From assembly GCA_017554365.1 (NCBI GenBank), contig JAFZIM010000052.1, forward strand, positions 1 through 41,526: a stretch of 41,526 nucleotides of DNA, in the 5' to 3' direction. The DNA comes from Alphaproteobacteria bacterium. GTDB taxonomy: Bacteria; Pseudomonadota; Alphaproteobacteria; Rs-D84. The translations under genes and the position numbers were made by a program. The notes beneath the pieces are model-generated. The model made no database searches. It was not told the DNA's origin and worked only from the letters and a program-made list of their open reading frames with translations. This document shows positions 5,453 through 37,393 of this stretch, piece after piece (position 1 is the stretch's first letter; each line of letters starts with the position of its first letter).

Positions 5453-6769
5453 ATGAAATTCTTGAAAAATATTTTTAGCAATTTAACTGATTTACAAAAA
5501 CGTATCTTGTTCACATTGGGTGCTTTGATTGTATATCGTATTGGTTCATTTATTCCATTACCAGGTGTTAATGCAAGTGCAGTTTTGCATTTATTTAATG
5601 GTGATAATGGCATTATGGGTATGTTCGATATGTTTTCAGGCGGTTCTTTGTCTCGTATGTCAGTATTGGCTTTGAATATTTTCCCATACATTTCAGCATC
5701 AATCGTTATACAATTATTGACAGCGACCAGTAAATCTTTGACAGATTTAAGAAAAGAAGGTGAATCTGGACGTATTAAAATCAACCAATATACACGTTAT
5801 TTGGCTGTGTTGTTGGCTGTGGTTCAAGGTTGGGCGGTTGTTCGTGGTTTGGAATCTATGGCACCAGTTAATGGTATTTCTGCGGTTGCTAATCCTGGAT
5901 TTGCATTTGAATTATCAGCGATAGTTGCGTTGGTTGGTGGAACTGTGTTTATCATGTGGTTGGCTGAACAGGTCACAGCACGTGGTGTAGGGCAGGGTGC
6001 ATCATTATTGATTTTTGCAGGTATCGTTGCAGAAGTTCCTGGTGGAATTGCTAAATTATTTTCTTTGATACGTGTTGGTCAAATGTCCCCAGCAATGATA
6101 GCTTTGGTATTGGGCTTTGTTGTTGGCATAGTTGCATTGATAGCATTTATGGAACAGGCACAACGTCGTATTCAAATCTTGTATCCACGTCAGGCGATGG
6201 CGAATGGTGCAATGAACACAAACGTTTCATATTTACCAATTAAAATCAATATGTCAGGTGTTATGGGACCTGTGTTTGCATCAAGTATTATGATGTTGCC
6301 AGCATTCGTTCAAAGGTTTGTGCAAAGTGATAATTTAATGGTTCAAAATATATTGGGCTTCTTTACATACGGAACTTGGTCATATATGGTATTATTTACA
6401 TTATTGATAGGGTTCTTTGCATATTTCCAGACAGCAGTTGTATTTAATTCAGAAGAAACAAGTACAAATTTAAAGAATGCTGGGGGATATATACCTGGGG
6501 TTCGTCCTGGTGAAGCAACCATGCATTATCTTGATGATATTGTTTCAAGAACAACTGCGATTGGCGTTGTTTATTTGATAGTAGTTTGTGTTTTACCAAT
6601 TTTATTAAATACACATGGCAAAATGCCATTGATGATTGGTGGAACAAGTGTTTTAATCGTGGCAGGTGTTGTATTGGATACAATGAACCAAATAAAATCA
6701 TATTTGGTTGAAAAACAATACACAGGTGTCGTGACTAATACACAAAAGAAAGGTCGTTTCCGTAATTAA
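5453..6769 (+). CDS. secY: Preprotein translocase subunit SecY
   Basis: 438 aa multi-pass membrane protein. LQKRILFTLGALIVYRIGSFIPLPGVN is the canonical SecY start. Position after rplO is as expected. Confidence 0.97.
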   Translation: MKFLKNIFSNLTDLQKRILFTLGALIVYRIGSFIPLPGVNASAVLHLFNGDNGIMGMFDMFSGGSLSRMSVLALNIFPYISASIVIQLLTATSKSLTDLRKEGESGRIKINQYTRYLAVLLAVVQGWAVVRGLESMAPVNGISAVANPGFAFELSAIVALVGGTVFIMWLAEQVTARGVGQGASLLIFAGIVAEVPGGIAKLFSLIRVGQMSPAMIALVLGFVVGIVALIAFMEQAQRRIQILYPRQAMANGAMNTNVSYLPIKINMSGVMGPVFASSIMMLPAFVQRFVQSDNLMVQNILGFFTYGTWSYMVLFTLLIGFFAYFQTAVVFNSEETSTNLKNAGGYIPGVRPGEATMHYLDDIVSRTTAIGVVYLIVVCVLPILLNTHGKMPLMIGGTSVLIVAGVVLDTMNQIKSYLVEKQYTGVVTNTQKKGRFRN

Positions 6770-6919: not shown

Positions 6920-7297
6920 ATGGCACGTATAGCAGGTGTTAACATTCCAAGTGAAAAACGCATTGAAATTGCGTTGCAATACATTCATGGTATTGGGCCG
7001 GCTAAATCAGCACAAATTTGTTCTGCATTGAAATTGAAAGACGGATTGCGTGCAAAAGATTTAACTGACGAGGATGTTATCAAAATTTCAAATTACATTG
7101 AACAAAATTTCAAAGTAGAAGGTGATGTTCGTCGTGAAGTTGCAATGAATATTAAACGTTTGCAAGATTTAAAAACATATCGCGGCATACGTCATCGTAA
7201 TCGTTTACCAGTTCGCGGTCAACGCACACAAACAAACGCAAGAACCCGTAAAGGAAAACGCGTTGTTGTTGCAGGTTCAGCGACCAAGGGTAAATAA
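6920..7297 (+). CDS. rpsM: 30S ribosomal protein S13
   Basis: 125 aa. [26 protein letters not shown] is typical of S13. Confidence 0.97.
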
Positions 7298-7360: not shown

Positions 7361-7744
7361 ATGGCAGTTACAAAATCAAAGAAGAAAGTTGTAAAGAAAG
7401 TATCACATGGTATTGCACATGTGGTTGCAACAAATAATAATACACGTATCACAATCACAGACCAAAGCGGTGCAGTTTTGACATGGGCAACCGCTGGGGC
7501 TAATAATTTCAAAGGTGCAAAAAAATCAACACCATACGCAGCAACAGTAGTAGCAGATGCAGTTGGTAAAAAAGTTGCTGAAATGGGTATGAAAACAATC
7601 GATGTTTTAATGCGCGGTATTGGTCAGGGTCGTGAATCTGCGGTTCGTGGTTTAGCAAATGCAGGATTGATTGTTCAATCTATTACAGACACGACACGTA
7701 TTCCACACAACGGGTGCCGTCCAAAGAAAGTTCGTCGTGTTTAA
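7361..7744 (+). CDS. rpsK: 30S ribosomal protein S11
   Basis: 127 aa. GIAHVVATNNNTRITITDQSG…FKGAKKSTPYAA and C-terminal IPHNGCRPKKVRRV are typical of S11. Confidence 0.97.
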   Translation: MAVTKSKKKVVKKVSHGIAHVVATNNNTRITITDQSGAVLTWATAGANNFKGAKKSTPYAATVVADAVGKKVAEMGMKTIDVLMRGIGQGRESAVRGLANAGLIVQSITDTTRIPHNGCRPKKVRRV

Positions 7745-7752
7745 TAAATACA

Positions 7753-7780
7753 ATACCGCCGTTTTGGCGGTATTTTTTTA
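7753..7780 (+). terminator. Rho-independent terminator directly after rpsK
   Basis: Perfect 8-bp stem ATACCGCC (7753-7760) / GGCGGTAT (7766-7773), loop GTTTT, followed by a T-run at 7774-7779. Confidence 0.75.
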
Positions 7781-7800
7781 TAAAATTTTATAAAAATATC

Positions 7801-7829
7801 TTGATATAAAAAAATATTTTTTTTACACT
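7801..7829 (+). promoter_or_regulatory. Sigma70-like promoter candidate for the CxxC-repeat gene P0
   Basis: TTGATA (7801-7806), 17-nt spacer, TACACT (7824-7829). It lies about 27 nt upstream of the GGAAGGA Shine-Dalgarno and the TTG start at 7856. Confidence 0.4.
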
Positions 7830-7855
7830 ATTACACAAGTTAATGGAAGGAATCT

Positions 7856-10780
7856 TTGAAAATCAAAAGTTTAGTTAGATTTTTGATGCTTGTTATTGCT
7901 TGCAATGTGTCAGTGCAAGCCGTTTTTGCTGATGATTTTGATGCTGAGGTTTTTTTAAATAGCTTAGAATTAAATCCACGACGTTGTTTTGGGGGTGGGC
8001 AGATATACGGCGAAGGTGGTGTTGGTTGTGCACAATGTCCAGGAGGCCAATCGGCTTCAAATGGTATCGATGAATGTTTTGCAAATTGTAAGAATGCGGA
8101 ATTTATTTCGCTTGGTGACGTATGTAGCGGGGATCCTAGTTGTGCTGCATCTATTACCGTTTTTATTATTTCTAAAAATTTATGTCAAAAATGTAAAGCG
8201 GGTGACAATAAATATTATTTAGAAAACAGATGTGTTTCAGCAACTGATTGTAATAATAATAACATGGTTGCTAATACGGTACTCGAAGACGATATTAATG
8301 TTGGTGTTTGTGAACCATGTGCCTCGGATCAATGTCGCAGTGGTAATGAATGTAAAGCCACCGATACAAATATACACAAACACAGTACTGATGGTATTTG
8401 TGTTGAATGTAGTGATAATCAATGTTTTAATGTCGATACTAATGTATGTATGGATTTGGACTCAACAGATATTATAAACAATAGAATGTATCGTGATACA
8501 AACGGAAATTGTGCTGCATGCGAAGGTTATACTGTTCCTCAAATTCCTAGACGTGCAAACGGTCCGGCATGTGTGACGCAGGAGCAGTGTAAAGACGGAT
8601 ATGGTATGCTTGAAGTTTCAGGTATAGACAACGCAAGATGTGGAAAATGTGAGAAACTTAGTGCAGTTCCTGAATTTCCTGATGTTGACCCTGGTGAATA
8701 TACATTAACAATTTATAAAAAAGAAACAGGAAGTGATAGGTATGTTTTTGCGAATCATCAATGTTGGGCTACAAATCCAAAAAAAGGAGGTTTCGCATAT
8801 AAGTATATGAAACCCGACGGACTTGGCAATTGGATTGCAGAGGATGATGTAAGCAAAATTGGTGAAACCAAAACAGGTTGTGTCGACCCGGAAAGACCTG
8901 TATGGGTGGTTGATGGATTATATTATGATATATATTATTGGCCAGAACATTTTGAATGTGGAACATGTGTAAATGGAATTTGGGAGGAGGATAGCGCACA
9001 TGCTGGTGGATGGAAATGCACATTATGTGAATCAGGTAAGATTCCTTTTGGTGCATGTAAAACATGTGCAGATTTAAATATGAATGCTGGTTGTAGTGTT
9101 GATTCTACCACAGGTCGATTAATAGGTGTACCACTTGGCGGATATTATTTTGAAAATGATGGAAGCAGGTCTTCCGCCCCATTATTTTGTGCGAAAACCG
9201 CTGGTGACGGTACGGACATGTGTTGGACGGGGGATAACAATAATAATACTTGTACCCCATGTGATTTAAATAATACAGTAGTAAGCCCAAGAACTGCAAC
9301 TGATGGTCGTCCGTATAATGAAAAGACAAATGCCACTTGTTCTGAAGGTTATTATATTAACAATGGTACATGTACTGTATGTCTTGGTGCAGGTAAGGGT
9401 TGGTATAAAAATGTAGATGGTAGTGGTGAACATCTGTTTTGTGATGATGCTTTTGAAAATGGTTTTTTAGCATATAAATGTGTTAATGATTTAATCAACA
9501 ACTATTATCGCGGTAATTGTGATAATGCCGGGGGAATTTCGTATAATAAATGGATAGCCCTGAATGAAGAAAACTTGAAACAAGTCATTAATGCGACAAA
9601 TGTGAATGTTAATAGTTTTATGCAGCAAGGAAAAGATCTTGGATATTTAGATGCAAATGATAAAACAATTAAAATGTGTACTTTACAAAATTTGGGGGTA
9701 GATAATAATGGCTTGGGTGCGGATGTGTGGGATGGTATAGGTATTGGATTACAAGAGATAGATGGAAATTCTGGGACCTTGCTTTATATAGATAGAGGGT
9801 GTTTCAAATGTAAGGAAGGATATGGATCTACAACTGACTCAGATTTACCAAATCTTTGTAAGAAATGTCCTAGCAATCAAGGCCCTATATTTATAGGAAA
9901 TGGGGATAATAAATACAAACGTCCAACAGCCGCCGAAGAAAATAAAGGATATTATGGTTGTAGTCCTTCATGTAAATTTGAAGGTTGGGGAAAATATAAT
10001 AATGAATGTGTATTGTGTTCAGATAAAGGAATGCAATCCATAGCAGGTTCAGAATATAATATTTGTCAAGCATGTCCAAAAGGAACAGGTTGGAATGAAG
10101 GATCTAAGACGTGTGGGGATTGTCCTAGTGATTCACCTTCGTATAATGGGAAATGTTTGGATTTTACAGGTTTGAAAAAAGAAATTTGTGATCCTAATGG
10201 TGCAAATTGTTCATCTAATAACCCTTTTTATATTGAAGCTGGTCAAATTAAATTTAGAAACGATTACCAAATAGATGAAAATGGTAATATTCAATATAAA
10301 GGTACGGGTAAAGATAACCCGCACAGATACGAAGCGGCTAAGAGTACAGACGGAAAGTATTATTGGGTGCCTTGTCGCGGGGGTAGTGATAATAATCTTA
10401 GTTATTCATGTTGTTATGAAGGTAAAAGAGTAAGACAAACAGATAATACGAGATTTGTATTACCTGGAATGGCATGTACAAAAGATAGTAGAAATAATAC
10501 TAAATCGACTTTACTTTGTGATGATGTTAACCCTGGTTTTGTGAGAGGCGAATCCGAATATCCAGATATTGATAGTTCATATAATATGGAAAATCTGACC
10601 AGTTTTATAGTAAATAGAGTTTGTAATAAACGTGTTGGTATTTCTAATTTATGCGATAATAATAATTGTATTGTTATACCAGAATGGTTGAAAGTGGAAA
10701 GTTTATCAACAAAATATTTGGATTATACCGGTAAAAGCGGTATGTCAAATTCTAGCCCTACTAGACCTGGAAAAACATAA
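7856..10780 (+). CDS. P0: secreted 974-aa cysteine-rich protein with 16 CxxC motifs (furin/ephrin-receptor-like/VSP-like repeats); function unknown
   Basis: Uninterrupted 2.9-kb ORF. TTG start is 5 nt after GGAAGGA. N-terminus MKIKSLVRFLMLVIACNVSVQA/VFA looks like a Sec signal peptide. I hand-counted about 69 Cys, including CAQCPGG, CQKCKAG, CEPC, CVEC, CAAC, CGKC, CGTC, CTLCESG, CKTC, CTPC, CTVC, CFKCKEGYG, CKKCPSNQG, CVLCSDKG, CQACPKGTGW and CGDCPSD. No C-terminal TM segment or beta-barrel is evident. Confidence 0.9.
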   Translation: MKIKSLVRFLMLVIACNVSVQAVFADDFDAEVFLNSLELNPRRCFGGGQIYGEGGVGCAQCPGGQSASNGIDECFANCKNAEFISLGDVCSGDPSCAASITVFIISKNLCQKCKAGDNKYYLENRCVSATDCNNNNMVANTVLEDDINVGVCEPCASDQCRSGNECKATDTNIHKHSTDGICVECSDNQCFNVDTNVCMDLDSTDIINNRMYRDTNGNCAACEGYTVPQIPRRANGPACVTQEQCKDGYGMLEVSGIDNARCGKCEKLSAVPEFPDVDPGEYTLTIYKKETGSDRYVFANHQCWATNPKKGGFAYKYMKPDGLGNWIAEDDVSKIGETKTGCVDPERPVWVVDGLYYDIYYWPEHFECGTCVNGIWEEDSAHAGGWKCTLCESGKIPFGACKTCADLNMNAGCSVDSTTGRLIGVPLGGYYFENDGSRSSAPLFCAKTAGDGTDMCWTGDNNNNTCTPCDLNNTVVSPRTATDGRPYNEKTNATCSEGYYINNGTCTVCLGAGKGWYKNVDGSGEHLFCDDAFENGFLAYKCVNDLINNYYRGNCDNAGGISYNKWIALNEENLKQVINATNVNVNSFMQQGKDLGYLDANDKTIKMCTLQNLGVDNNGLGADVWDGIGIGLQEIDGNSGTLLYIDRGCFKCKEGYGSTTDSDLPNLCKKCPSNQGPIFIGNGDNKYKRPTAAEENKGYYGCSPSCKFEGWGKYNNECVLCSDKGMQSIAGSEYNICQACPKGTGWNEGSKTCGDCPSDSPSYNGKCLDFTGLKKEICDPNGANCSSNNPFYIEAGQIKFRNDYQIDENGNIQYKGTGKDNPHRYEAAKSTDGKYYWVPCRGGSDNNLSYSCCYEGKRVRQTDNTRFVLPGMACTKDSRNNTKSTLLCDDVNPGFVRGESEYPDIDSSYNMENLTSFIVNRVCNKRVGISNLCDNNNCIVIPEWLKVESLSTKYLDYTGKSGMSNSSPTRPGKT

Positions 10781-10795
10781 AATATTATAAATATA

Positions 10796-10824
10796 TTGAC
10801 TTGTCATATTTTTTGATTTAAAAT
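10796..10824 (+). promoter_or_regulatory. Near-consensus sigma70-like promoter candidate upstream of rpoA
   Basis: TTGACT (10796-10801), exact 17-nt spacer, TAAAAT (10819-10824). It is 70 nt upstream of the rpoA ATG. Confidence 0.5.
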
Positions 10825-10894
10825 ATCCCAGCACATTGTGAAAGATGTGTGCCGTGTGGCGAAAATAATAAACTAAGCCCTATGGAGTGTTTAA

Positions 10895-11938
10895 ATGATA
10901 GAAAAAAACTGGATGACTTTAATAAAGCCAAAAAAATTGAATATTAAAGTCGATGAACATAATCCTAATATTGCAACATTAATCGCAGAACCTTTGGAAA
11001 AAGGTTTCGGTTTGACATTGGGAACAGCATTACGTCGTGTATTGTTGTCTTCTTTACAGGGTTGTGCCCCTATCTATGTCAAAATTGATGGTGTTCAACA
11101 CGAATTCAGCAGTTTGTCTGGTGTTCGTGAAGATATTACGGATATTATTTTAAATTTAAAAGGGGTTTATTTCAAAGCCCTTACCGAAGGTCAACACAAA
11201 GCAACATTGAAAGTTAAAAATACAAATGCTGGTGGCGATATGGTTGTCACAGCAGGTATGATTGAAACTTCTGGTGCTGTCGAAGTAATGAACAAAGATG
11301 CTGAAATTTGCACTTTGGACGTTGGTGCTGAATTTAATATGGAAATCACATTGGGTTCAGGCCGTGGTTATGTCCCTGCAAGTGCTAATGCAACAGATTT
11401 GCCTTTGGGAACTATACCGGTTGATTCAATTTATTCTCCTATTTTAAATGTGGCTTCTTCCGTTACTCAGACCCGTGTCGGTCAAAGTACAGATTATGAT
11501 AAATTGGAATTGTCAGTTAAAACAAATGGTTCTGTATCTCCAGAAGATGCGATTGCTTTTGCAGCCCGTATTTTGACAGACCAATTAACTGTATTCATCA
11601 ATTTTGAAGATCCTGCACAAATCGGTGCTGGTGAAGAAGACGAAAATGCAAAAGATGTTTTGCCTTTCGATCCACAATTGTTAAAACGTGTAGAGGAACT
11701 TGAATTGTCTGTTCGTGCAAATAATTGCTTGAAAAACGATAAAATTAGTTGGTTGGGCGAATTAGTTCAAAAGACAGAAGCTGATATGTTGAAAACACCT
11801 AATTTCGGCCGTAAATCTTTGAACGAAATCAAAGCTCAATTGGAAGCAATGGGATTGTCATTAGGTATGGAAGTACCAGGATGGCCACCTGAAAATGTTG
11901 CAGAATTGGCAAAAAAATATGAAGACCCTTATAAATAA
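10895..11938 (+). CDS. rpoA: DNA-directed RNA polymerase subunit alpha
   Basis: 347 aa. [25 protein letters not shown] is the N-terminal domain. The C-terminal domain shows [13 protein letters not shown]…GRKSLNEIK. Confidence 0.97.
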
Positions 11939-12598: not shown

Positions 12599-12618
12599 TC
12601 AATTTGCCAAAAATTAAA

Positions 12619-12641
12619 CCGCCCAATTGGGCGGTTTTTTT
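12619..12641. terminator. Rho-independent terminator between convergent rplQ and the 133-aa gene
   Basis: CCGCCC (12619-12624) / GGGCGG (12629-12634), loop AATT, then a T-run at 12635-12641. A-rich on the other side, so it may act in both directions. Confidence 0.7.
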
Positions 12642-12655
12642 ATTTAATATATTTT

Positions 12656-13057
12656 TTATTTTTCGTTTCCAAGCAAAGATTTTCTGATTTTTATTTGAAT
12701 TCTTATATCACGAAGAATTCTTTTATTTATTGGTTGTATTCCTGTTTTGTATATTGAACCATCTGGGAATAAATACGCAACCGGCTGTTTTTCTTTGTTA
12801 TAATATTCAATAATTGTTGTTGATAATGTATAATCTGCCTTTTTTGGTACGTAAAAATATTCAAATAACATAGTGTAAGCATTTGGATTTGGAAATTGCT
12901 GTGTTGGAATTGCACCATCTTCGCTGATACTTAATACTTTGCCATTTATAGAATATATTGGTAATGCTGTCTGTTTAGCATGTGCAAAAGAATCACAAAA
13001 ATGTGAATTTAAATGTGCTAAATCTGCTTTATAAACATTTTTTCTTAATCTTGTCAT
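12656..13057 (-). CDS. Hypothetical protein, 133 aa, no recognisable family
   Basis: ORF with the ATG at 13057-13055 preceded by AGAGG (reverse complement of cctct at 13068-13072). I trimmed it from the longer ORF that begins at 13093. No signal peptide or motif that I recognise. Confidence 0.6.
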   Translation of the reverse strand: MTRLRKNVYKADLAHLNSHFCDSFAHAKQTALPIYSINGKVLSISEDGAIPTQQFPNPNAYTMLFEYFYVPKKADYTLSTTIIEYYNKEKQPVAYLFPDGSIYKTGIQPINKRILRDIRIQIKIRKSLLGNEK

Positions 13058-13174
13058 ATTATTTATACCTCTTTTTTTAGGGCAAGCCGACATAAACTAG
13101 CACTAAAAAAATGCTATGTCAAATAAGTTAGTTAATTTTTTTTTGTTTTTTTTGTATTTTTTTTATAAAAGCAC

Positions 13175-13203
13175 TTGTCAAAAAATGTATGTTATGATAA
13201 AAT
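13175..13203 (+). promoter_or_regulatory. Promoter candidate with extended -10 for P1
   Basis: TTGTCA (13175-13180), 17-nt spacer, TAAAAT (13198-13203), with TG at 13195-13196 (the string TGATAAAAT). Confidence 0.45.
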
Positions 13204-13228
13204 TATTCCAAAGGTTAAGGAGTATTTT

Positions 13229-16042
13229 ATGAAAAAATTGTTAATTTTACCTGTGTTAATCGCTATGTGTATGGCGGATTTCGGCGCTTTTGCTGCTGCA
13301 CCACGTGGTGGAAGAACTGGCGGAACACCTGCTGCATCAAATGCTGGTGGTAATGTCAAAGCTGCTCGTGCTGCTAAACAAAACACCCAGGTCAAACCAG
13401 GAACAGCATCTGGTAAAGCAACTAGTGGTACAACAGGCAACAAAACATCAGGTTCTAATACTGGTAGTCAAAAGAATAGTGCGCCTGCTGCATCAAATGC
13501 TGGTGGTAATGTCAAAGCTGCTCGTGCTGCTGCTACACAGAAAGTGTTGAATACTGGAACAAAAATTGCACAGAAAACAGAAAATACTGTGGTACCTAAA
13601 GAATGTCAGGACGCATATTATGGCTGTATGGATACATTCTGTATGTTGGATAATACATCAGGTGGTCGTTGCCAATGTAGTGACAGAAGTAAAGATTTAA
13701 ACCCATTATTGGACGAAATTACAAAAATCGACCAAATTGCTTATACAATGGCTACCGAAGGTGTAGAAAGATTGCAAATGGGTGAAAATGCAGAACAGGT
13801 TATTGCGATGGCAAAAGCAGCAGGTGCAAAGGTTTCATCTACAGATAACAGTTTGGGAATTCAAAGTGCAGACGATTATGCTGCTAATGCTGGTAAAAAC
13901 AAAAAATCAACAAGAAAAGAATTGGATTTAAATGCATTCAAAGTGGGTGTATTTGATGACGATGATGATGTTTTTGGTGAAGATGAAAAATCAGAAGCCG
14001 AAAAGAAAGCAGAAGTTTTGGAAGACAGCATGGCAAATAAACTTGGTGATGATTTACGTTCTGCTGCAAATAAACTTTGTGTTGAACAAATGCCAAAACA
14101 ATGTGTAGATTCAACATCTATGTTGCAATTGGCTTATACACAAAAAATTAAATCAGATTGTAATGCATACGAAAATTCTTTGAAACAACAAAAGATTGCA
14201 AGTAATCAAAAATTGGCTGCTGCTGAAAAAGCATTACGTGAAGCCGCTCTTGAATCTTTTGAAAAAGAAAATAAATATGAATTGGGACCATGTATAACTG
14301 AATTTACAAAATGTATCCAAAAAGATGCAGGTTGTGGTGAAGATTATACAGGTTGTACAACTTTGTCTGCAAAAGACAATGTAAGAAACAAAACAGGTCA
14401 ACAAACAGTTATTCCAGGAACAACTGTTAAAATATCTGTTTCTACATTGGAAGCAATCACAGCAAAGAAATCAATGTGTGAACACATTACAAAACAATGT
14501 GTAAAGGCAAACCAAAATGATGCAGTATGGACAGCGTTCTTGAAAAATGTTGCACCTGCATTGAAATCAGCTGAAGAACTTGCAGAAGAAAAGTTACGTT
14601 TAGAATGTATACCAAACATTTCTGAATGTTTCCAAAAAGCTTGTGCACAGAAATTTGATCCAAAAGCAAAAGAAGCAAACTATGATTCATGTTTGTCTGA
14701 TCCTTCTATCGTAAAAGATTTATGTAAGGTAAAATTGGAACCATGTTTGGAAGCAACTGGTGGTTCTTATGCAAATGCTGAATCTTCTTCTTTGTGGAAT
14801 GGTGTTTTAGCGGCTTTGGGTGCTATGCGTGTTGATGCATGTACAAGTGAAGTAAAAGCATGTTTGGAATCTGATGATGTTTGTGGTAAAGATTACGGTA
14901 GATGTGTCGGTTTGGATACAGAATCTATCGGTGAAATGTGCCCAACAGATAAGTTGACTGCTTGTATGGCAAAGAATGAGAATAATGAATCTACTGTACG
15001 TGCATATGTTGCAAGAGTTGCACAAGGTATCGCATTAGGTATTGATAGCAATATGCTTACCGTTTGTCAAAAAGCTGCTGATGATGCTATGACAAAGGTT
15101 TGTGGTGCAACTGATTCTTGTGAATCTTTGACATTTGATGGCAGAATATTTGCTGATAATTTAAATGTCCAAGTATGTAGAAAAGGTGCTGAGGGTGTGT
15201 ATGAATGTGCTAATACAGCTGATGGTTTCGATGCCAAATATGTTTTGAATGGTGAAGTAGTTCCAAATATTACAGGCATGTTTGATTTGGCAACTATAAC
15301 ATTCGATACAGAAAATGGTTTTGGTGTTGATACTGGATTGGCCTCTTATACAGAAAAGACCAGTAACGGACGTTATTATACAGGTGATAAATGGGCTGAC
15401 AGTGTTGCAAAACAATTAAACGCAGCAATAAATGCTAAATGGAATACAATTAAATCTGACCCAACAGTCACATATTGTATGGAAGGTCGTCAAGTCCAAG
15501 GTTTTGATAGCAAGAAATTTGGTAAAAAGAATGATAAAGAATCTATACGTTTTCCAAACTTGTTAGACAACAAGAGAGATGTTATGATTTATGCTTTATA
15601 TAAATCAATGTCTTCTGCATATTCTGATGCATTGGATGGATTACAAGAAAAACGTGAAGCTGCTCAAAAGACCATTGATGATCGTTTAGCAAGAATTGAT
15701 GGTGCTGGTGAATCAGCTCAGGATAGATTAAATGAAAGTGCATGTCAGAGTGGTTATGCTAGACCTGACCCTAACTGGAATGGTGATAGAAATAAGAGAC
15801 GTGCTAGAGCATATATAAGACAGCTTGTTGATGTTAATGCATCTTATAATGCGGACACAAATGTATGTACTGCTGAAACAATGCAATATACATGTACTAA
15901 ATATTTATCACCAAGTTGTAGAATCTTTGACAATGGAACAAAGACAAAGACAAAGACAATACAAATGCATAAATATAACAGAGAGGATGCATTGGGTAGT
16001 AATGGTTATACAGCGAAACCAAAAAATCCTGATGAATTCTAA
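13229..16042 (+). CDS. P1: secreted cysteine-rich protein, unrecognised paralogous family (937 aa)
   Basis: ATG at 13229 is 6 nt after AAGGAG. Signal peptide MKKLLILPVLIAMCMADFGAFA. Family signature CQDAYYGCMDTFCMLDNTSGGRCQC at 13604-13678. Long blocks are shared with P2, P3 and P6. Confidence 0.92.
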   Translation: MKKLLILPVLIAMCMADFGAFAAAPRGGRTGGTPAASNAGGNVKAARAAKQNTQVKPGTASGKATSGTTGNKTSGSNTGSQKNSAPAASNAGGNVKAARAAATQKVLNTGTKIAQKTENTVVPKECQDAYYGCMDTFCMLDNTSGGRCQCSDRSKDLNPLLDEITKIDQIAYTMATEGVERLQMGENAEQVIAMAKAAGAKVSSTDNSLGIQSADDYAANAGKNKKSTRKELDLNAFKVGVFDDDDDVFGEDEKSEAEKKAEVLEDSMANKLGDDLRSAANKLCVEQMPKQCVDSTSMLQLAYTQKIKSDCNAYENSLKQQKIASNQKLAAAEKALREAALESFEKENKYELGPCITEFTKCIQKDAGCGEDYTGCTTLSAKDNVRNKTGQQTVIPGTTVKISVSTLEAITAKKSMCEHITKQCVKANQNDAVWTAFLKNVAPALKSAEELAEEKLRLECIPNISECFQKACAQKFDPKAKEANYDSCLSDPSIVKDLCKVKLEPCLEATGGSYANAESSSLWNGVLAALGAMRVDACTSEVKACLESDDVCGKDYGRCVGLDTESIGEMCPTDKLTACMAKNENNESTVRAYVARVAQGIALGIDSNMLTVCQKAADDAMTKVCGATDSCESLTFDGRIFADNLNVQVCRKGAEGVYECANTADGFDAKYVLNGEVVPNITGMFDLATITFDTENGFGVDTGLASYTEKTSNGRYYTGDKWADSVAKQLNAAINAKWNTIKSDPTVTYCMEGRQVQGFDSKKFGKKNDKESIRFPNLLDNKRDVMIYALYKSMSSAYSDALDGLQEKREAAQKTIDDRLARIDGAGESAQDRLNESACQSGYARPDPNWNGDRNKRRARAYIRQLVDVNASYNADTNVCTAETMQYTCTKYLSPSCRIFDNGTKTKTKTIQMHKYNREDALGSNGYTAKPKNPDEF
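13328..13375 (+). repeat. Perfect 48-bp direct repeat, copy 1 (inside P1)
   Basis: cctgctgcatcaaatgctggtggtaatgtcaaagctgctcgtgctgct, encoding PAASNAGGNVKAARAA. Confidence 0.95.
13484..13531 (+). repeat. Perfect 48-bp direct repeat, copy 2 (inside P1)
   Basis: Identical 48-mer located 156 nt (52 codons, in frame) downstream of copy 1. Confidence 0.95.
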
Positions 16043-16046
16043 AAAA

Positions 16047-16068
16047 ATGCCCTTCGGGGCATTTTTTA
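16047..16068 (+). terminator. Rho-independent terminator after P1
   Basis: ATGCCC (16047-16052) / GGGCAT (16057-16062), loop TTCG, then a T-run. Confidence 0.75.
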
Positions 16069-16192
16069 TTGGTTGTGAATATTTGTATAAAATATTTTTT
16101 ATATCCAAATTTTTGATTTATATTTTTTGAAAAATTTTTTATCAAATTTCTTTCTTTTTCACTATAAAAGTGTTTTTTTTAATGCCTTTTTA

Positions 16193-16201
16193 TGTTATAA
16201 T
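16193..16201 (+). promoter_or_regulatory. Extended -10 promoter candidate for the P2-P3 operon
   Basis: TGtTATAAT at 16193-16201, about 30 nt upstream of the P2 ATG. No convincing -35 element. Confidence 0.35.
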
Positions 16202-16231
16202 TTACAAAGATTATAGTAGAGAGATTTTTTC

Positions 16232-18817
16232 ATGCCAAAAATATTTTATGCTTTGTTAATGTTGGTGGTTGTTATGCCTGAAAATGTCAGTGCGGCTGTG
16301 AATCGTGCGCGTGCTGGGGCTTCACAAAAAGTTGTTAATGCTGGAACCAAGGTTGCTGCTGCAACTAAATCAAATTTATTAGACAAAGATTGCGAAGAAT
16401 CTTTCTTTGGTTGTTTAGATGCTTTCTGTGTTGTTGAAAATGTTTCTGGGGGGCGTTGTGTTTGCAGTAATAAACATGCAGATTTGTCAGCACAACTTGA
16501 TGAAATTTTAAAAATGGACGAAGATGCCTATGCTATATCTACATACGGCGTTGAACATATAAATTTAGGTAAAGCAGCGGATAGCGTTATATCTGCTTCT
16601 GAAAAGGCATTTGATAAAGCAAAAAAAGATGCAGAAGACGAAGATTTAACAGAAAAGAAATCTGCTGAACCAGTTAAGAAAAAAACTCTCAGTTTTGATG
16701 AATGGAATAAATCTTTTGGTGGTGATGATGACGATGAAGATGAAGAAGAAACTGCATCACTTGATGAAGATGATATTTCAAATAAAAAGGGCGATGAATT
16801 ATATATTGCCGCTGCAAAAATGTGTTGGACTCAGGTGCCAGATAAATGTAAACCAAAAGAAGAAATGGCAAAAATGCTTTATACACAAAAAATCAAATCT
16901 GATTGTGCTGCATTTGAAAATAGTGTAAAGCAGAAAAGAACAGAAAGCACAAATAAACTTGAAACTGCAAAGAAAAATGTTCGTGATGCTGCGTTTGAAA
17001 GTTTACAAGCGTCTAATAAATTTGATATGGGACAATGTGCGATTGAATATGTTTCTTGTTTGCGTAAAGATGATATTTGTGGCAAAGATTTAACAAAATG
17101 TGTGACGTTGGCTGCAAATGAAAATGTGACAAAAGGCGAATCGGAACAAGTCGAAATCAAAGGCGAATTTTCAAGTATTTCTATTGCTGCTTCTACGATG
17201 GATTCTTTGAATGCAAAACGTGCAATGTGTGCCAGTGTGACAGACCAATGTTCTTCGGTTGATAAAGATGAATTGTGGACTTTGGTTTTGAAAAATATCG
17301 CACCTGAATTAAAGAATGCAGAATTAATTGCTGAATCTGATTTACGTGGTAATTGTTTAACAAATATTTCTGAATGTTATTTGAAAGCATGTAAAGATAA
17401 TATGGACCCAAAAGATCCTGATGGTTCATACGATATGTGTTTGGCAAGACCAGACAATTATAAATCTTTCTGTAAAGTTCAATTAGAACCATGTTTGGCT
17501 GCAACAGGTGGTTCGTATGATGATCCTGATTCATCAACTTTGTGGCGTGGGGTTTTAGCAAAATTAGCTGCAATGCGTGTTGATGCATGTACTGATGAAT
17601 TTAAATCTTGTTTACAAAGTGAAGACAGATGTGGCGAAGATTATTCACAATGTATTGGTCTTGACAATGATGATGTTGCGAAATTATGTCCAGAAGATAA
17701 ATTGCCTGCATGTTATAAAGAATACAATGGGAAAGTTGAAAGTGTTAATGAAACACTTGAAAGAATTGCCCAAGGTGTCATGTTAAATGTTGATAATGGT
17801 TTGTTGGCTGCATGTGAAAATGCTATCAATGAAGCAATGGTCAAGGTTTGTGGTGATGCTGAAAATTGTAATAAATTGGCAGTTGATAGTGGTATTGGTT
17901 CAAGAACTTTGAAATTAGAATATTGTGAAACAACTGACGAAGGTTATGTAAATTGTAAACAAGATGTTGGTTTAATTACAGATATTGAATTGGGTAAAAC
18001 AACACGTGATTCTAATTTAAAAACTACCAAGCATGATATTCATTTCTTTTCAGGTGTATATCGTGGTGTGATAGATTGGAGTGCTATATCAGTCAATGAT
18101 GATGTTAGTGGTATTACAGATTATGATGAATATGCTGAAAAAGCGGCTGATAGTTTAAAGAATATGAATGAAGATGAAAAAACAAGAATTAAATCTGAAA
18201 TTGGTTCATTAGCCAGTGCTATTAAGAATGCAATATCTGCTGTAGAATCTGATCCAAAAATTCAATTCTGCACCACAGGTCGTCAGGTTGAAGGTTTGGC
18301 GAATGATGAAGGATTTACACAAAAAATAGGCAAGGGTAATAATCCTTCTTTCCCAAATATTACACAAACTATGCGTAATATGATTGTGAATTCTGCATTA
18401 CAGCAAGCACGTGAAAATTACAATAAAAAATTGTCTGAATTGGAAAAGCAGGAAGCCGAAGAATCACAAGGTTTGGCAAGCCGTATTGCACAAATCAGTG
18501 GTGAAAATGAAAAAGTTGTGAAGCAAGATATGGCAAGAAAAGCATGTATTGCTTTGGCTGAAAAAGATAAACTTGGTGAATCTGTTGGTAGTTCCGTGAA
18601 GAAAGCGATTGAACGTGTTTCTGGTAGCGATGGTAAATTAACAGGACATAGTGCTGAATCTTCTTATAATTACAAAAGAAGTATTACTACTACATTTAAT
18701 TTGGAAGATATGATTTGTCATAAATGTATCAGAACACAACATTGTGAAAAGACAAAAACAAGTTATTGTAAACAATGGGGTGAAGAAGTAGAAACCTGTG
18801 AAGACATACATTATTAA
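16232..18817 (+). CDS. P2: secreted cysteine-rich protein, same paralogous family (861 aa)
   Basis: Signal peptide MPKIFYALLMLVVVMPENVSA. Signature CEESFFGCLDAFCVVENVSGGRCVC at 16391-16465. 38 Cys by hand count. C-terminal tail CHKCIRTQHCEKTKTSYCKQWGEEVETCEDIHY. Confidence 0.92.
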   Translation: MPKIFYALLMLVVVMPENVSAAVNRARAGASQKVVNAGTKVAAATKSNLLDKDCEESFFGCLDAFCVVENVSGGRCVCSNKHADLSAQLDEILKMDEDAYAISTYGVEHINLGKAADSVISASEKAFDKAKKDAEDEDLTEKKSAEPVKKKTLSFDEWNKSFGGDDDDEDEEETASLDEDDISNKKGDELYIAAAKMCWTQVPDKCKPKEEMAKMLYTQKIKSDCAAFENSVKQKRTESTNKLETAKKNVRDAAFESLQASNKFDMGQCAIEYVSCLRKDDICGKDLTKCVTLAANENVTKGESEQVEIKGEFSSISIAASTMDSLNAKRAMCASVTDQCSSVDKDELWTLVLKNIAPELKNAELIAESDLRGNCLTNISECYLKACKDNMDPKDPDGSYDMCLARPDNYKSFCKVQLEPCLAATGGSYDDPDSSTLWRGVLAKLAAMRVDACTDEFKSCLQSEDRCGEDYSQCIGLDNDDVAKLCPEDKLPACYKEYNGKVESVNETLERIAQGVMLNVDNGLLAACENAINEAMVKVCGDAENCNKLAVDSGIGSRTLKLEYCETTDEGYVNCKQDVGLITDIELGKTTRDSNLKTTKHDIHFFSGVYRGVIDWSAISVNDDVSGITDYDEYAEKAADSLKNMNEDEKTRIKSEIGSLASAIKNAISAVESDPKIQFCTTGRQVEGLANDEGFTQKIGKGNNPSFPNITQTMRNMIVNSALQQARENYNKKLSELEKQEAEESQGLASRIAQISGENEKVVKQDMARKACIALAEKDKLGESVGSSVKKAIERVSGSDGKLTGHSAESSYNYKRSITTTFNLEDMICHKCIRTQHCEKTKTSYCKQWGEEVETCEDIHY

Positions 18818-18819
18818 AG

Positions 18820-21552
18820 ATGAAAAATATTTTGAAATTCTTATTGTTAGCAATTGTATGTTGCATGTTTAATGCAGATGGTTTCGCTGCACGTGCACCT
18901 GTGAAATCAAGCAATCAAAATAAACCTGTACAAAAAGCACGTGCTGCTTCGGGTCAAAAGGCAATAAATTTAGGAACAAAAATTCAGGTTGCAACAACCA
19001 CATCTTCGCCATGTCAGGAAAAATACGATGCGTGTATGGATACTGGGTGTGTGATGGATAATGATTCCGGTGGTCGTTGTTTGTGTTCTGATCAATACAA
19101 AGATTTAAGTGATAAATTAGAAGAATTAAAAAAGAAAGATGCTGATACTTACAAAATCGCAAATATTGCCAAAGCAAGCATAGAAGATGGCGAAGATGTT
19201 GATGAAGCCATGGATTCCATCTTTGGTGATGAAGAAAGTGATTTCGATGTTAGCCCGGCTTCATCAGGTGCAACTGGGGATAAATTGCGTGCAGAAATGC
19301 ATAATATTTGTATTGAAAAAATACCTGAATGTAAATTGCAATTTGTTTTGGTTAAAAATATGTATATTCAGAAAATCAAATCAGATTGTGCCGCTTTTGA
19401 TAATGCTTTGCGGGAACAAAGTATCGCAAGCAAAGAAAAAAGGGCAGAAGCAAAAAAAATGGTGCGTGAAGCAGCCCTTGAAAAATATGAAGAAAATAAC
19501 AAATATGATTTGGGTCAATGTACAATTGAATTCACAAAATGTATAAAAACAACTGCTGAATGTGGCAATGATTTTACTGGCTGTGTTGATAGTGTTGGTA
19601 AAGATAAAATTTATGGCAAAGACATAGATGTATTTACTATCAAAGGTGAAAATTCTTCTGTGGTAATTGCTAAATCAACATACGAAATGTTGGAAAGTAA
19701 AAAATTAATTTGCGAAAGTGTTTTGAAAAATTGTGTTGATGTCAAAGACGAAGTTTGGAACGCGTTTTTGGCAAATTCTGCACCTGAAATAAAATTGGCA
19801 GAAAATAAATCAGAATCAAATATTCGTTCGTCTTGTTTGGAAAATATTTCAAATTGTTTTATTAATGCGTGCAAAGATAGTATCGAAGGTGATGACAAAG
19901 AATCTTATGATATGTGTTTGACACGTCCTGAAACGATGAAATCTTTGTGTCGTGTTCAAATGGAACCATGTTTGGCTGCAACTGGTGGTTCGTATGATGA
20001 ACCTGAAAAATCAACTTTATGGCCAAGCGTTTTAGCAAAATTATCTGCTATGCGTGCTGATTCTTGCACTGAAGAAATGAAAGAATGTATGCAAAGTGAA
20101 GACAGATGTGGCCCAGATTATGCAAATTGTATTGGGTTGGATACAAATATAATTATGCGTATGTGCCCGTATGATAAATTGCCTGGCTGTCAAAAAGTTT
20201 ATGGTGAAGATAAAATCCAAGGCGATGAAATTTATGACGAAGTTGCCAGAATTATCGAAGGCGTAATATTAAATATTGATAATGATTTATTAAAGGTTTG
20301 TGAAAATGCTGCTGAAACAGCAATGACAAAAGTTTGTGGTTCTGCTGAAAGTTGTGAGGTTTATGCAGCAGGTGGAAAAATTGGCGCACAATCTTTGAAA
20401 TATCAGGTTTGCCAATATTCAACAGATTCCCCAGATTCAACCGAAGGTTTCAAATGGTTCGATTGTCGCGAAAGTTTAGATCAAATATCTGATGCTGAAT
20501 TGGGACGTGTACAAGACGCCAAAAATGAAGAATTGGGTAATGTAAAACCATTTGCTGGTGTTATATCTGGTGTTATTAAATGGGAATCAGTAGAAATAAC
20601 AGACGATGGTTTAATTGATATAGATAAATATATGGAAGCATTAGAAAAAGAAAAAATCACAGAAGAAGAACGTGTTCGTGTCAAAGCAGAAATAGAGCAG
20701 GTGCAATCAGATATTAATCGTGTTATTTCATCTGTGGAACAAGACCAATGGTTGCAATTTTGTATTTCGGGTCGTCATATAACGGGCGTGACGGACAGAT
20801 TTGCGGATAATAAAGTACGTTTTCCAAAATTGGCAAATAATGTCCGTAAACAAATTGCTACCGCTGCATTACATCAGGCAAAAGAAAATTATTATGCCGA
20901 ATATGATAAATTATCCGCACAAATGCAACAAGATTTGGTGACAATAAGCGAAAGATTGGCAAATAACTTAAAAGAAAATGGCAAAGATGCTAAAAAAGCA
21001 GCGGCACGTGAGGCATGTGTTAATTTAGCTGCTGTGTCAGCATTTGCCAAAGCACCAGTCGGTCAATCTTTGTGGGCAAAGATTATTGTTGGTATAATTG
21101 TTGTTGCTGCGATTATTGTTGCAACAGTGTTTACATGTGGTGTTGCTGGTGGTGCTTCACTTGGATTTTTAGCAGGTGTTGCTACTGGTTCAATGATAAC
21201 TTCGGTGGTAGGGACTATTTCGGCAACGGGGGCTTTGATTGCGGCGTCAACTGCGACTGCCGTTGCTGGTGCCGCGGGAATTTCAGCAGCAGTTGATGCT
21301 GGTATAAATGCAACAACTGATAATAGTAAAATAGCAGCAGGAGAACAAACACAAAATCATGGTGAATATGCGGCGAATGAATGGAATTATCAAGAAAAAA
21401 TAACAACAGATTTTGATAATGATACAATGATTTGTAAGAAATGTGTTGTGAATCGTAAGTGTCGTTCTACAAAATGGTCTATATTCCGTGATAGATATTG
21501 TTCTAGTTGGGATCCTTATAGTGAACCAAGATGTACTGAAATTCAATTCTAA
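18820..21552 (+). CDS. P3: cysteine-rich protein of the same family with a C-proximal Gly/Ala-rich hydrophobic (glycine-zipper-like) region (910 aa)
   Basis: ATG lies 2 nt after the P2 stop, which suggests translational coupling. Signal peptide MKNILKFLLLAIVCCMFNADGFA. Signature CQEKYDACMDTGCVMDNDSGGRCLC at 19012-19086. Hydrophobic region at about 21073-21300. Tail CKKCVVNRKC…CSSWDPYSEPRCTEIQF. Confidence 0.92.
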   Translation: MKNILKFLLLAIVCCMFNADGFAARAPVKSSNQNKPVQKARAASGQKAINLGTKIQVATTTSSPCQEKYDACMDTGCVMDNDSGGRCLCSDQYKDLSDKLEELKKKDADTYKIANIAKASIEDGEDVDEAMDSIFGDEESDFDVSPASSGATGDKLRAEMHNICIEKIPECKLQFVLVKNMYIQKIKSDCAAFDNALREQSIASKEKRAEAKKMVREAALEKYEENNKYDLGQCTIEFTKCIKTTAECGNDFTGCVDSVGKDKIYGKDIDVFTIKGENSSVVIAKSTYEMLESKKLICESVLKNCVDVKDEVWNAFLANSAPEIKLAENKSESNIRSSCLENISNCFINACKDSIEGDDKESYDMCLTRPETMKSLCRVQMEPCLAATGGSYDEPEKSTLWPSVLAKLSAMRADSCTEEMKECMQSEDRCGPDYANCIGLDTNIIMRMCPYDKLPGCQKVYGEDKIQGDEIYDEVARIIEGVILNIDNDLLKVCENAAETAMTKVCGSAESCEVYAAGGKIGAQSLKYQVCQYSTDSPDSTEGFKWFDCRESLDQISDAELGRVQDAKNEELGNVKPFAGVISGVIKWESVEITDDGLIDIDKYMEALEKEKITEEERVRVKAEIEQVQSDINRVISSVEQDQWLQFCISGRHITGVTDRFADNKVRFPKLANNVRKQIATAALHQAKENYYAEYDKLSAQMQQDLVTISERLANNLKENGKDAKKAAAREACVNLAAVSAFAKAPVGQSLWAKIIVGIIVVAAIIVATVFTCGVAGGASLGFLAGVATGSMITSVVGTISATGALIAASTATAVAGAAGISAAVDAGINATTDNSKIAAGEQTQNHGEYAANEWNYQEKITTDFDNDTMICKKCVVNRKCRSTKWSIFRDRYCSSWDPYSEPRCTEIQF

Positions 21553-34691: not shown

Positions 34692-34761
34692 TCCTATACT
34701 TTTAAATAATAATAACAAAAATAAGATATTTTAAGCAAGAATATTTTAAATAAATTTCGCA

Positions 34762-34787
34762 ATAAAAAAATCCACATATTGTGGATT
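34762..34787 (-). terminator. Rho-independent terminator after infA
   Basis: On the minus strand: AATCCAC / GTGGATT stem (34787-34781 and 34775-34769), 5-nt loop, then a T-run (complement of the A-run at 34762-34770). Confidence 0.7.
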
Positions 34788-34791
34788 CTTT

Positions 34792-35043
34792 TTAATGATT
34801 TGGTGCAGATTCATTTGCTGCACGTGTTCTTTCTACAAAAGTTATTCGACCTTTGTCTAAATCATAAGGTGTCATTTCTACATGGACTTTTTCCCCAATG
34901 TTAACCCAGATACGTGCTTTACGCATTTTTCCACATACGGTTGCCAAAATAACATGTCCGTTATCCAATTTAACACGGAACATTGTGTTTGGTAAACTTT
35001 CTTCAACAACACCAGAAAAAACGATTACATCATCTTTTGCCAT
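34792..35043 (-). CDS. infA: Translation initiation factor IF-1
   Basis: [69 protein letters not shown] is the canonical S1-like IF-1. I trimmed the start to the ATG at 35043, which is preceded by AAAGG. It has a C-terminal extension of about 11 aa. Confidence 0.95.
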
Positions 35044-35115
35044 TATTAACCTTTTGTTTTTTACAACACAAATGATATTAGTCATAAAAATAAATTGCAA
35101 GAAGTTTTTATATAC

Positions 35116-35144
35116 TTGCAAGATTTAATATTTTTTGATAAAAT
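35116..35144 (+). promoter_or_regulatory. Promoter candidate with extended -10 for the P5-P6 operon
   Basis: TTGCAA (35116-35121), 17-nt spacer, TAAAAT (35139-35144), TG at 35136-35137. The string TGATAAAAT is the same as upstream of P1. Confidence 0.45.
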
Positions 35145-35170
35145 ACATATACAATGTAGGAATGTATCAG

Positions 35171-37372: not shown

Positions 37373-37393
37373 AAATAATTGGGAGAGAAAACC

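Follow-up and report, generated by a model that had tools for sequence, protein, structure and literature searches.

A hypervariable gene slot between rpsK and rpoA in the ribosomal cluster of Candidatus Enterousia

Background

The ribosomal supercluster is the textbook case of frozen gene order, and its alpha operon runs rpsM-rpsK-rpsD-rpoA-rplQ in E. coli and rpsM-rpsK-rpoA-rplQ in Alphaproteobacteria. How did 3150 nucleotides (nt) come to lie between rpsK and rpoA in one alphaproteobacterium, and are the genes on the two sides still transcribed together? We addressed these questions in a stretch of 41,526 nt (contig JAFZIM010000052.1 of assembly GCA_017554365.1), hereafter the window, where the gap holds one open reading frame (ORF) of 974 amino acids (aa), P0. 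A preliminary description had taken the gap for an insertion peculiar to this genome. In our analysis the split is genus-wide and provided with dedicated signals, the DNA between these signals behaves as a slot with gene turnover, and P0 would be a long-resident occupant replaced by block recombination. We hold this combined reading to be likely.

The source genome belongs to Candidatus Enterousia, a group of gut bacteria in the alphaproteobacterial order Rs-D84 whose genomes measure around 0.9 Mb. It is a metagenome-assembled genome (MAG) of 0.88 Mb in 85 contigs, 73% complete. The genus is uncultured, inhabits animal guts, has genomes below 1 Mb, and lacks the tricarboxylic acid cycle and respiratory chains (PMC12306168). 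P0 is the sole substantial ORF within 7745-10894, and the genes that define the locus are the following:

7361-7744, + strand: rpsK (ribosomal protein S11), last gene of the upstream ribosomal unit; Pfam Ribosomal_S11 PF00411, E 4.4e-38
7856-10780, + strand: P0, exported 974-aa protein, current occupant of the slot; ORF with a TTG start
10895-11938, + strand: rpoA (RNA polymerase alpha subunit); Pfam PF01000, PF03118, PF01193
12044-12598, + strand: rplQ (ribosomal protein L17); Pfam PF01196

The rpsK-rpoA junction in related genomes

We located rpsK and rpoA in 40 related genomes in a first survey. A second survey covered 67 Enterousia-like species loci, 41 of which have both genes on the fetched stretch. 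The junction is short in the other families of the order (35-100 nt in 13/13 genomes) and in other Alphaproteobacteria (73-193 nt, 13 genomes). Within the genus, one species of the first survey has a gap of 137 nt and the rest mostly have gaps of 0.6-3.3 kb. The gap extends to 14.5 kb in G024 and 26 kb in G006, and several species have rpsK and rpoA on different contigs. In the second survey, the gaps range from 109 to 4279 nt in the 41 loci, only four of which are empty (at most 204 nt), and no rpsK was found within 6 kb in 12 loci. The sequence of rpsK itself is 97-100% identical across the genus. Judging by these distances, the interval is derived relative to other Rs-D84 families and other Alphaproteobacteria, and the split is the common state of the genus and probably ancestral to it.

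A trivial explanation would be a chimeric contig, in which assembly or binning joined unrelated DNA between rpsK and rpoA. The MAG is fragmented, with its 85 contigs and 73% completeness, which would favour such an error. Yet the exact P0 protein is recorded on two contigs, the longest of 42.6 kb, orthologous arrangements are found in ENA and Logan assemblies from other samples, and the slot is filled in dozens of species genomes. The probability of an artefact is thus next to negligible.

Transcription signals at both ends of the interval

If the split is an established state of the genus, the two sides may have acquired their own signals. Three elements of the window bear on this:

7752-7781, + strand: intrinsic terminator after rpsK; 9-10 bp GC-rich stem, 3-5 nt loop and T-run, found by a terminator scan
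10796-10824, + strand: rpoA promoter TTGACT-17-TAAAAT, 70 nt before rpoA; 10/12 consensus matches
12616-12645, + strand: intrinsic terminator closing the rpoA-rplQ unit, or P0-rpoA-rplQ if P0 reads through; scan, -16.2 kcal/mol, z = -3.6

The stem after rpsK (7752-7774) reads AATACCGCC-GTTTT-GGCGGTATT and is followed by TTTTTAT. It has a folding energy of -13.8 kcal/mol (z = -4.05), which none of 200 shuffled sequences equals, and its strength is comparable to that of the terminator 3' of rplQ (12616-12637). The element is also hairpin-competent on the minus strand. A strict script found a hairpin and T-run directly 3' of rpsK in 34 of 40 Enterousia-like loci versus one of 13 in other Alphaproteobacteria, and three of the six loci that it missed show a hairpin with a larger loop, then a T-run. 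The stem sequences vary between species, while the hairpin and T-run design and its position are kept. In G023, which has the shortest gap among the species first surveyed, the T-run passes straight into the -35 of rpoA. At the other end of the interval, neither the scan nor folding found a terminator-like site on the + strand between the P0 stop (10780) and rpoA (10895).

The promoter before rpoA is similarly widespread. TTGAC(T/A), a 17-nt spacer and TAnAAT precede rpoA in 26/26 distinct sequences first examined, and a regular expression of this pattern matches 63 of the 67 Enterousia-like loci versus none of the 13 loci from other Alphaproteobacteria.

A candidate leader RNA before rpoA

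Between this promoter and rpoA, we found a conserved and structured leader, composed of the following elements:

10830-10891, + strand: structured rpoA leader; covariance model R1, covariation
10831-10850, + strand: HP1, covarying 5' hairpin
10851-10860, + strand: HP2, small second hairpin (GCC-N4-GGC)
10858-10879, + strand: invariant A-rich 22-nt box GGCGAAAATAATAAACTAAGCC; conservation
10884-10887, + strand: Shine-Dalgarno (SD) sequence GGAG of rpoA

HP1 has 7-12 bp across species and begins 6-8 nt past the -10, with a sequence that is almost never alike. HP2 is usually present as RCC-N4-GGY, and is followed by the invariant box GGYGAAAATRATAAACTAAGCY and then by the SD. The box occurs in 62 of the 67 Enterousia-like loci versus 0/13 outgroup loci, and only once in its own genome. 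RNAalifold did not recover HP1 from a plain MAFFT alignment of these leaders, as the sequences of the hairpin cannot be aligned. This was solved by a covariance model (R1) hand-seeded from six sequences. In 68 of 70 Enterousia loci R1 matches exactly once, always immediately 5' of rpoA, and the 13 outgroup loci have no match. Across the order, it is found once per genome in 106 of the 108 genomes of the genus and in 7 of 16 sister-genus genomes, but in no other family.

The pairing is conserved beyond what shuffled alignments produce, with 92.8% of cells paired (76% in shuffles) and 125 cells with double-sided changes (40 in shuffles), counts that come from an alignment fitted to the model and are biased towards structure. 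The covariation score is 0.612 versus 0.31 in shuffles, none of 500 reaching the observed value, and sliding the partners by 1-3 columns gives at most 0.11. The whole region of terminator, promoter and leader (7700-11000) has no match in Rfam at E <= 5. In the window, RNAfold also offers another pairing (CCGUG.GGC ... GCC.UAUGG), in which the box is enclosed and the SD partly covered. We therefore regard 10830-10891 as a candidate new cis-regulatory RNA, which appears specific to one family of Rs-D84.

Four genomes of sister genera (G115, G146, G101 and G123; loci L133, L134, L135 and L137) have the box and hairpin within a gap of 59-72 nt, too short to accommodate a separate promoter outside rpsK. 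Hence, the RNA element seems older than the split and able to act between cistrons. This observation can be used to defend the idea that the locus is still one operon, where the hairpin after rpsK would be a leaky attenuator or an RNA-stability element, the promoter hexamers would be minor or due to chance, and rpoA would be transcribed mainly by read-through across P0. The lack of a terminator between P0 and rpoA fits with this idea. So does the frequency of consensus-like hexamers in this AT-rich sequence: we found 39 promoter-like matches when 28 were expected, so that the support for the promoters rests on conservation and not on the match. It is this conservation that makes the single operon improbable. 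The -35, the 17-nt spacer and the -10 are kept in 63/67 loci while their surroundings vary, and a covarying hairpin stands at a fixed distance from the -10. The terminator of rpsK is as strong as the one ending rplQ. Finally, in many species rpoA is more than 6 kb away, on another contig, or preceded by cargo on the opposite strand, and read-through cannot supply rpoA in these cases.

Since the terminator, the promoter hexamers and the covarying 5' hairpin are conserved genus-wide, the transcription of rpoA-rplQ is very probably no longer coupled to that of the ribosomal genes upstream, as the preliminary description had proposed. Its other statements on signals also agree with our scans, namely a terminator at 7753-7780 (conserved, as seen above, throughout the genus), TTGACT-17-TAAAAT at 10796-10824, another promoter-like element at 7801-7829 (see below), and no recognisable terminator after P0.

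Content and turnover of the slot

What lies between the terminator and the promoter of rpoA is an insulated and hypervariable slot of 109 nt to more than 6 kb, where the same core genes bracket different content. Cargo is present in 37 of 41 loci and falls into at least 27 sequence families, mostly of proteins with signal peptides. The slot can be empty, contain one to five genes, exceed 6 kb, or have its sides fully separated. Among the 55 labelled species we counted 23 slot architectures, which require at least 30 changes on the rpoA DNA tree. Separation by more than 6 kb alone accounts for at least nine independent changes on this tree.

The commonest occupant is a small secreted family (fam0) of 100-170 aa, found in 23 loci (e.g., L066, L079 and L109) on either strand. 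Its members share the conserved motif PVRVKTHTEVIDHYQVYQPV..Y.P.G, and the family does not occur in the clade described next. In two species (G006 and G024), the interval includes members of a large paralogous family that in the window lies 3' of rplQ; in these two genomes the members are inside the rpsK-rpoA interval and not 3' of rplQ.

Cargo rich in CxxC motifs has a simpler history. It corresponds to a single change on the tree, as one clade of 11 rows (100% support in the Shimodaira-Hasegawa-like approximate likelihood ratio test, SH-aLRT) holds every CxxC locus, including the window. Slot proteins of this type occur in six loci, with lengths of 102-778 aa and 7-10% Cys, and the one of G007, a clade-mate of the window, matches Ephrin_rec_like (PF07699, E 5.9e-15). 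From this distribution, a CxxC-rich gene is placed in the slot since the ancestor of the 11-row clade. The genes of the slot CxxC family (fam1) in L033 and L038 (G002 and G007) have their own conserved element, TTGCGC-17-TATCAT, 3' of the rpsK terminator, unlike the TTGATA-17-TACACT of P0.

P0, the occupant of the slot in the window

Two elements precede the coding sequence of P0:

7801-7829, + strand: P0 promoter-like element TTGATA-17-TACACT; 9/12 consensus matches
7845-7858, + strand: P0 SD GGAAGGA and TTG start; sequence

The promoter-like element is identical in two other lineages (L050 and L051). L050 has every base of the SD and TTG region unchanged, and GGAAGGA and the TTG are also present in L051. 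In the more distant G001, both hexamers are kept (TTGACC / TACACT) and the spacer has diverged, which is the pattern expected of a real promoter.

The N-terminus of P0, read from the TTG start, is a canonical signal peptide, MKIKSLVRFLMLVIAC, with a lipobox-like LVIAC (Cys16). The L051 orthologue has LLAC at the equivalent position. The protein contains 69 Cys and 16 CxxC motifs, after which the next residue is often P or G. Given its signal peptide or lipobox and its cysteine content, P0 may be a surface protein, and the likeliest guess for its role would be envelope or partner contact. Searches for known domains gave little: Pfam returned only noise even at E <= 10, and a profile search against PDB had 0 matches. 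An AlphaFold (AF2) model built from an alignment of three sequences was discarded as unusable, with a mean predicted local distance difference test (pLDDT) of 34.8, and no fold was assigned. A Foldseek search with this model (pLDDT 34.8) returned nothing significant (best E 0.088), its weak matches being mostly to TNFR- and EGFR-type cysteine-rich domains.

Homologues of P0 are very few. A full HMMER scan of 1.84 billion (1.84e9) representative proteins identified only two, P0003 (978 aa) and P0004 (1250 aa), the latter with a similarity that covers the C-terminal half. The genes for both lie in the rpsK-rpoA interval of independent metagenome contigs, and their neighbours on either side are the same. 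We detected no P0 homologue in the genomes of 40 related species, BLASTP of P0 against the slot proteins of 17 genus-mates gave nothing significant, and tblastn revealed no paralogue, partial copy or silent cassette in its own genome. A kinship with the large downstream protein P1 was also considered and rejected, the two being unrelated on comparison.

The profile of the P0 family is distantly linked to that of fam1 over the first ~250 residues (hhalign probability 93.7%, E 1.9e-7), although this is a single match between cysteine-rich sequences and includes the signal peptide. The link agrees with the rpoA tree, which suggests that P0 is a fast-evolving descendant of a long-resident occupant and not a newcomer.

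The rarity of P0 could nevertheless be explained by a recent, one-off event, whereby a horizontally acquired gene was dropped into an intact rpsK-rpoA junction. The absence of P0 homologues in the 40 related species and of a paralogue in its own genome is what such an event would leave, and the junction is indeed contiguous in the other families of the order. However, the split, the terminator, and the rpoA promoter with its leader are genus-wide, the slot of two other lineages is filled by orthologues of P0, CxxC proteins are found there in a single clade of 11 rows, and P0 has its promoter and signal-peptide region in common with the gene of G001. The composition of P0 is also native (GC 0.32-0.38, for 0.31-0.40 in the whole window, hence no GC anomaly) and there are no signs of mobile elements. 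The ORF list and Pfam show no integrase or transposase gene in the interval, we found no tRNA in the window, the only direct repeats flanking the interval are chance-level ones of 12-16 nt, and nothing beyond such repeats suggests a target-site duplication or terminal inverted repeats at the insert. We thus consider a one-off insertion very improbable. The preliminary description was right in reporting no integrase, transposase, tRNA or flanking direct repeats, and the insertion that it proposed is correct in so far as the interval is derived relative to the junctions of 35-193 nt found in other families of the order and in other Alphaproteobacteria. It does not hold as an event peculiar to this genome: once relatives are compared, the split is common in the genus, P0 has orthologues in the slot of two other lineages, and a CxxC-rich gene would have been there since the ancestor of the 11-row clade.

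Mosaic divergence of P0 alleles

If P0 descends from a resident gene, its divergence from the closest alleles should tell how it changed. We compared the window with L050 and L051, whose flanks differ from it by 5-17% in DNA, so that they do not represent the same strain. L051 and L052 were considered as one P0 allele in two backgrounds, which would have proved exchange directly; this was rejected because they are 100% identical over 17.3 kb and correspond to the same strain. The comparison with L050 delimits one feature:

7960-10788, + strand: hyperdivergent mosaic cassette body; drop of DNA identity versus L050, left edge approximate

The housekeeping genes flanking the slot have synonymous divergence (dS) of 0.01-0.25 with L050, non-synonymous divergence (dN) of at most 0.02, and 94-100% amino-acid identity. 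In P0, dS is 0.66, dN is 0.44, and the amino-acid identity is ~47%, and dN/dS is ~0.66 versus 0.02-0.2 in the flanks. Still, 63 of the 69 Cys of P0 are conserved with P0003 in this comparison. The change along the DNA is abrupt: identity to L050 is ~95-98% up to ~7950, falls to ~61% within ~100 nt (near 7950-8000), and is back to 98% at ~10797. The right border is at 10789 in all three comparisons, nine bases 3' of the stop of P0 and seven 5' of the rpoA -35. Segments of P0 mostly have proportions of synonymous differences (pS) of 0.3-0.8 versus ~0.01-0.2 in the flanking housekeeping genes, and the internal island 8928-9419 has 86% DNA identity to L050 and a pS of ~0.1. With G001, a homologous stretch spans rpsK, its terminator, the promoter of P0 and roughly a dozen codons at the start of the gene. 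Homology resumes at the rpoA promoter, whereas the 2.9 kb of the cassette body are unalignable.

Two further observations were made in the same comparison. The dS values of rpsM and rpsK are 0.012 and 0.056, while that of secY, just upstream, is 0.25; the low values could reflect either a strong codon constraint or a tract of recent recombination whose end lies in the 5' part of P0. The large protein P1 (13175-16042) has dS 0.57, dN 0.28, and 66% identity with its L050 counterpart. Its last ~1 kb (15050-16042) is unalignable in DNA, the next gene (P2) is 92% identical, and the region looks like a second mosaic locus.

The abrupt borders point to block replacement by recombination, or to old alleles kept by selection. 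We infer that P0 diverged by allele replacement through homologous recombination anchored in the conserved flanks, with diversifying selection acting in addition on an exposed protein. One could argue instead that P0 diverged in place, without foreign alleles, because the resident gene underwent local hypermutation or very strong positive selection. Its dN/dS of ~0.66, far above the 0.02-0.2 of the flanks, can be read in this way. The cysteine scaffold is conserved as expected of one gene under structural constraint, and the order of identities (window-L050 > window-L051 >= L050-L051) mostly tracks that of the flanks. But selection on the protein is not the explanation for a synonymous divergence several-fold above that of the flanks (pS 0.3-0.8 versus ~0.01-0.2). 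The abrupt borders and the internal island with pS ~0.1 indicate a mosaic, and tblastn, in a search that did not extend to a reverse transcriptase, found neither a second nor a partial copy of P0 as a possible template or donor in the genome. Divergence in place is accordingly unlikely.

Some elements weigh against replacement in blocks and, more generally, against the reading that we favour for the locus. There are three P0 alleles only and no donor allele was identified, so that recombination is deduced from the sharp edges of the block together with the dS contrast, and the identity profile of the three alleles shows only weak signs of conflicting relationships. The genome under study is a MAG of 73% completeness. 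The efficiency of termination, the two start sites, and the read-through of P0 are deduced from sequence conservation alone.

Order of events and a model for the locus

The sister genera of the same family help to order the changes. Two distant genera have a plain junction of 40-71 nt without the box, one junction of 109 nt has the terminator, promoter and leader with nothing between, and other sister genera carry cargo. From these states, the likeliest order would be a contiguous junction, then an intercistronic leader, then the terminator and promoter, then cargo, and finally, in some lines, full separation. The last of these steps correspond to the insertion followed by separation that has been described for this operon cluster in other phyla (PMC8046335).

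In the favoured reading, with its split shared by the genus and its slot of long-resident but replaceable cargo, the transcript of the upstream ribosomal genes would end at 7781, at the intrinsic terminator right after rpsK. Transcription of P0 would start at ~7835 and, lacking a terminator, would run into rpoA-rplQ and end at 12637. The latter two genes would also be transcribed from the sigma-70-type promoter at 10796-10824, with a start at ~10830. The 5' hairpin of the leader would probably be stabilising, and the box may act as a translational operator beside the SD. P0 keeps its promoter, signal peptide and cysteine scaffold, while its body would be replaced in sharp-bordered blocks. It was not introduced by a mobile element in recent times, and would descend from the CxxC-rich gene at the base of the 11-row clade.

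A bolder version is possible, which we put forward only tentatively and think less likely to be right than wrong. In this version, the break between rpsK and rpoA would be a dedicated, insulated landing pad and exchange locus for contingency envelope proteins. The conserved blocks would serve as homology arms, through which strains and species could exchange entire alleles of exposed cysteine-rich proteins, in the manner of capsule or O-antigen loci. As the cargo lacks a terminator, its expression would be tied to that of the alpha subunit and L17, and the leader would be a new autoregulatory RNA of rpoA-rplQ predating the split, given its intercistronic position in sister genera.

Comparison with known systems

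The locus resembles the canonical alpha operon in that genes, order and orientation are the same and the cluster lies 3' of spc and secY. It differs from it by the terminator after rpsK, by the rpoA promoter and lineage-specific leader, and by 3.15 kb of accessory coding DNA. The other Rs-D84 families and other Alphaproteobacteria have a junction of 35-193 nt without terminator (1/13 by script), promoter or leader. The S4-binding leader of the alpha operon (Rfam Alpha_RBS) is an autoregulatory leader RNA of a ribosomal-protein operon. Like leaders of this type, that of Enterousia has a conserved, covarying structure and, immediately 5' of the first gene's SD, an invariant box that is single-stranded, in an operon of the translation and transcription machinery. 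Unlike Alpha_RBS, it precedes rpoA and not rpsM, has no match in Rfam, and is restricted to one family of Rs-D84.

Capsule and O-antigen loci are known to sit between conserved flanks. Core genes are also known to flank chromosomal hotspots of gene turnover (Oliveira et al. 2017, PMC5635113). The slot has in common with such hotspots that the same two core genes enclose very different accessory content with rapid turnover. As with hotspots and capsule loci, neither an integrase nor a tRNA is present, and the borders of the cassette are marked by a sudden shift in identity. Unlike in hotspots, the flanks are among the most conserved genes known, in the ribosomal supercluster of a genome of ~0.9 Mb, and the cargo consists mostly of orphan secreted proteins proper to the lineage instead of recognisable transferred functions; that the flanks recombine is here deduced.

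The part of Brandis 2021 (PMC8046335) that bears on our case describes two operons becoming disconnected, in Gammaproteobacteria and Bacilli, where a few genes are first inserted, breaking the concatenation, and a second event fully disconnects both sides. Relative to that part of the work, Enterousia is alike in showing small inserts, large inserts, and complete separation (nine changes to more than 6 kb), all within one genus. It differs in that the break is inside the alpha operon of a reduced-genome alphaproteobacterium, is fixed genus-wide with dedicated signals, and is a recurrent variable slot instead of a single rearrangement. The break is an operon boundary here only because the lineage evolved a terminator and a promoter at it.

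At the protein level, the 16 CxxC motifs of P0 are reminiscent of Ephrin_rec_like (PF07699), of TNFR- and furin-like repeats, and of Giardia proteins of the variant-specific surface protein (VSP) type. Unlike the Ephrin_rec_like, TNFR and furin-like families, P0 has no sequence match in Pfam or PDB.

Altogether, the case is a variant of the known phenomena of hotspots and operon invasion (PMC5635113; PMC8046335). What stands out is the position inside the most conserved gene cluster, the dedicated signals, and the mosaic divergence of the occupant. The unusual part is thus not the presence of an insert, but a genus-wide hypervariable slot with an occupant of extreme mosaic divergence.

Other features of the window

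The genes of the spc and alpha clusters are all on the + strand of the window, and rplQ is still 3' of rpoA. Upstream of rpsK are:

5453-6769, + strand: secY, spc cluster
6920-7297, + strand: rpsM, alpha cluster

Convergent to rplQ, at 12656-13093 on the - strand, is an orphan ORF of 145 aa (orf145) without a Pfam match, which is kept in L050 (83% identity) and found at the same position in L051. The possibility that it is a relocated member of fam0 was rejected (hhalign probability 0.1%). Further on, 13175-21552 and 32361-39871 encode six large paralogous exported proteins of 745-955 aa with ~4% Cys and no Pfam match. An N6/N4 DNA methyltransferase with a RAMA domain, CcrM-like, is encoded at 24973-26073 on the - strand and fits with an alphaproteobacterium. 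The genome encodes many exported cysteine-rich proteins, yet the 73% that is assembled has no match to DsbA (PF01323), a negative that is uninformative at this completeness and comes from a search in which other oxidase families were not included.

Conclusion

Our results suggest that a reduced-genome, host-associated genus has opened the ribosomal supercluster at one fixed point and made of it its most variable locus of secreted proteins. This would provide a natural system to study how an essential operon tolerates being split and how hotspots form in the absence of mobile elements. The candidate leader RNA of rpoA is directly testable. For genome annotation, large inserts between rpsK and rpoA in Rs-D84 should be taken as a normal state and not as assembly errors. 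For the biology of these uncultured bacteria, the slot points to a set of orphan proteins that likely mediate contact with the host or with a partner.

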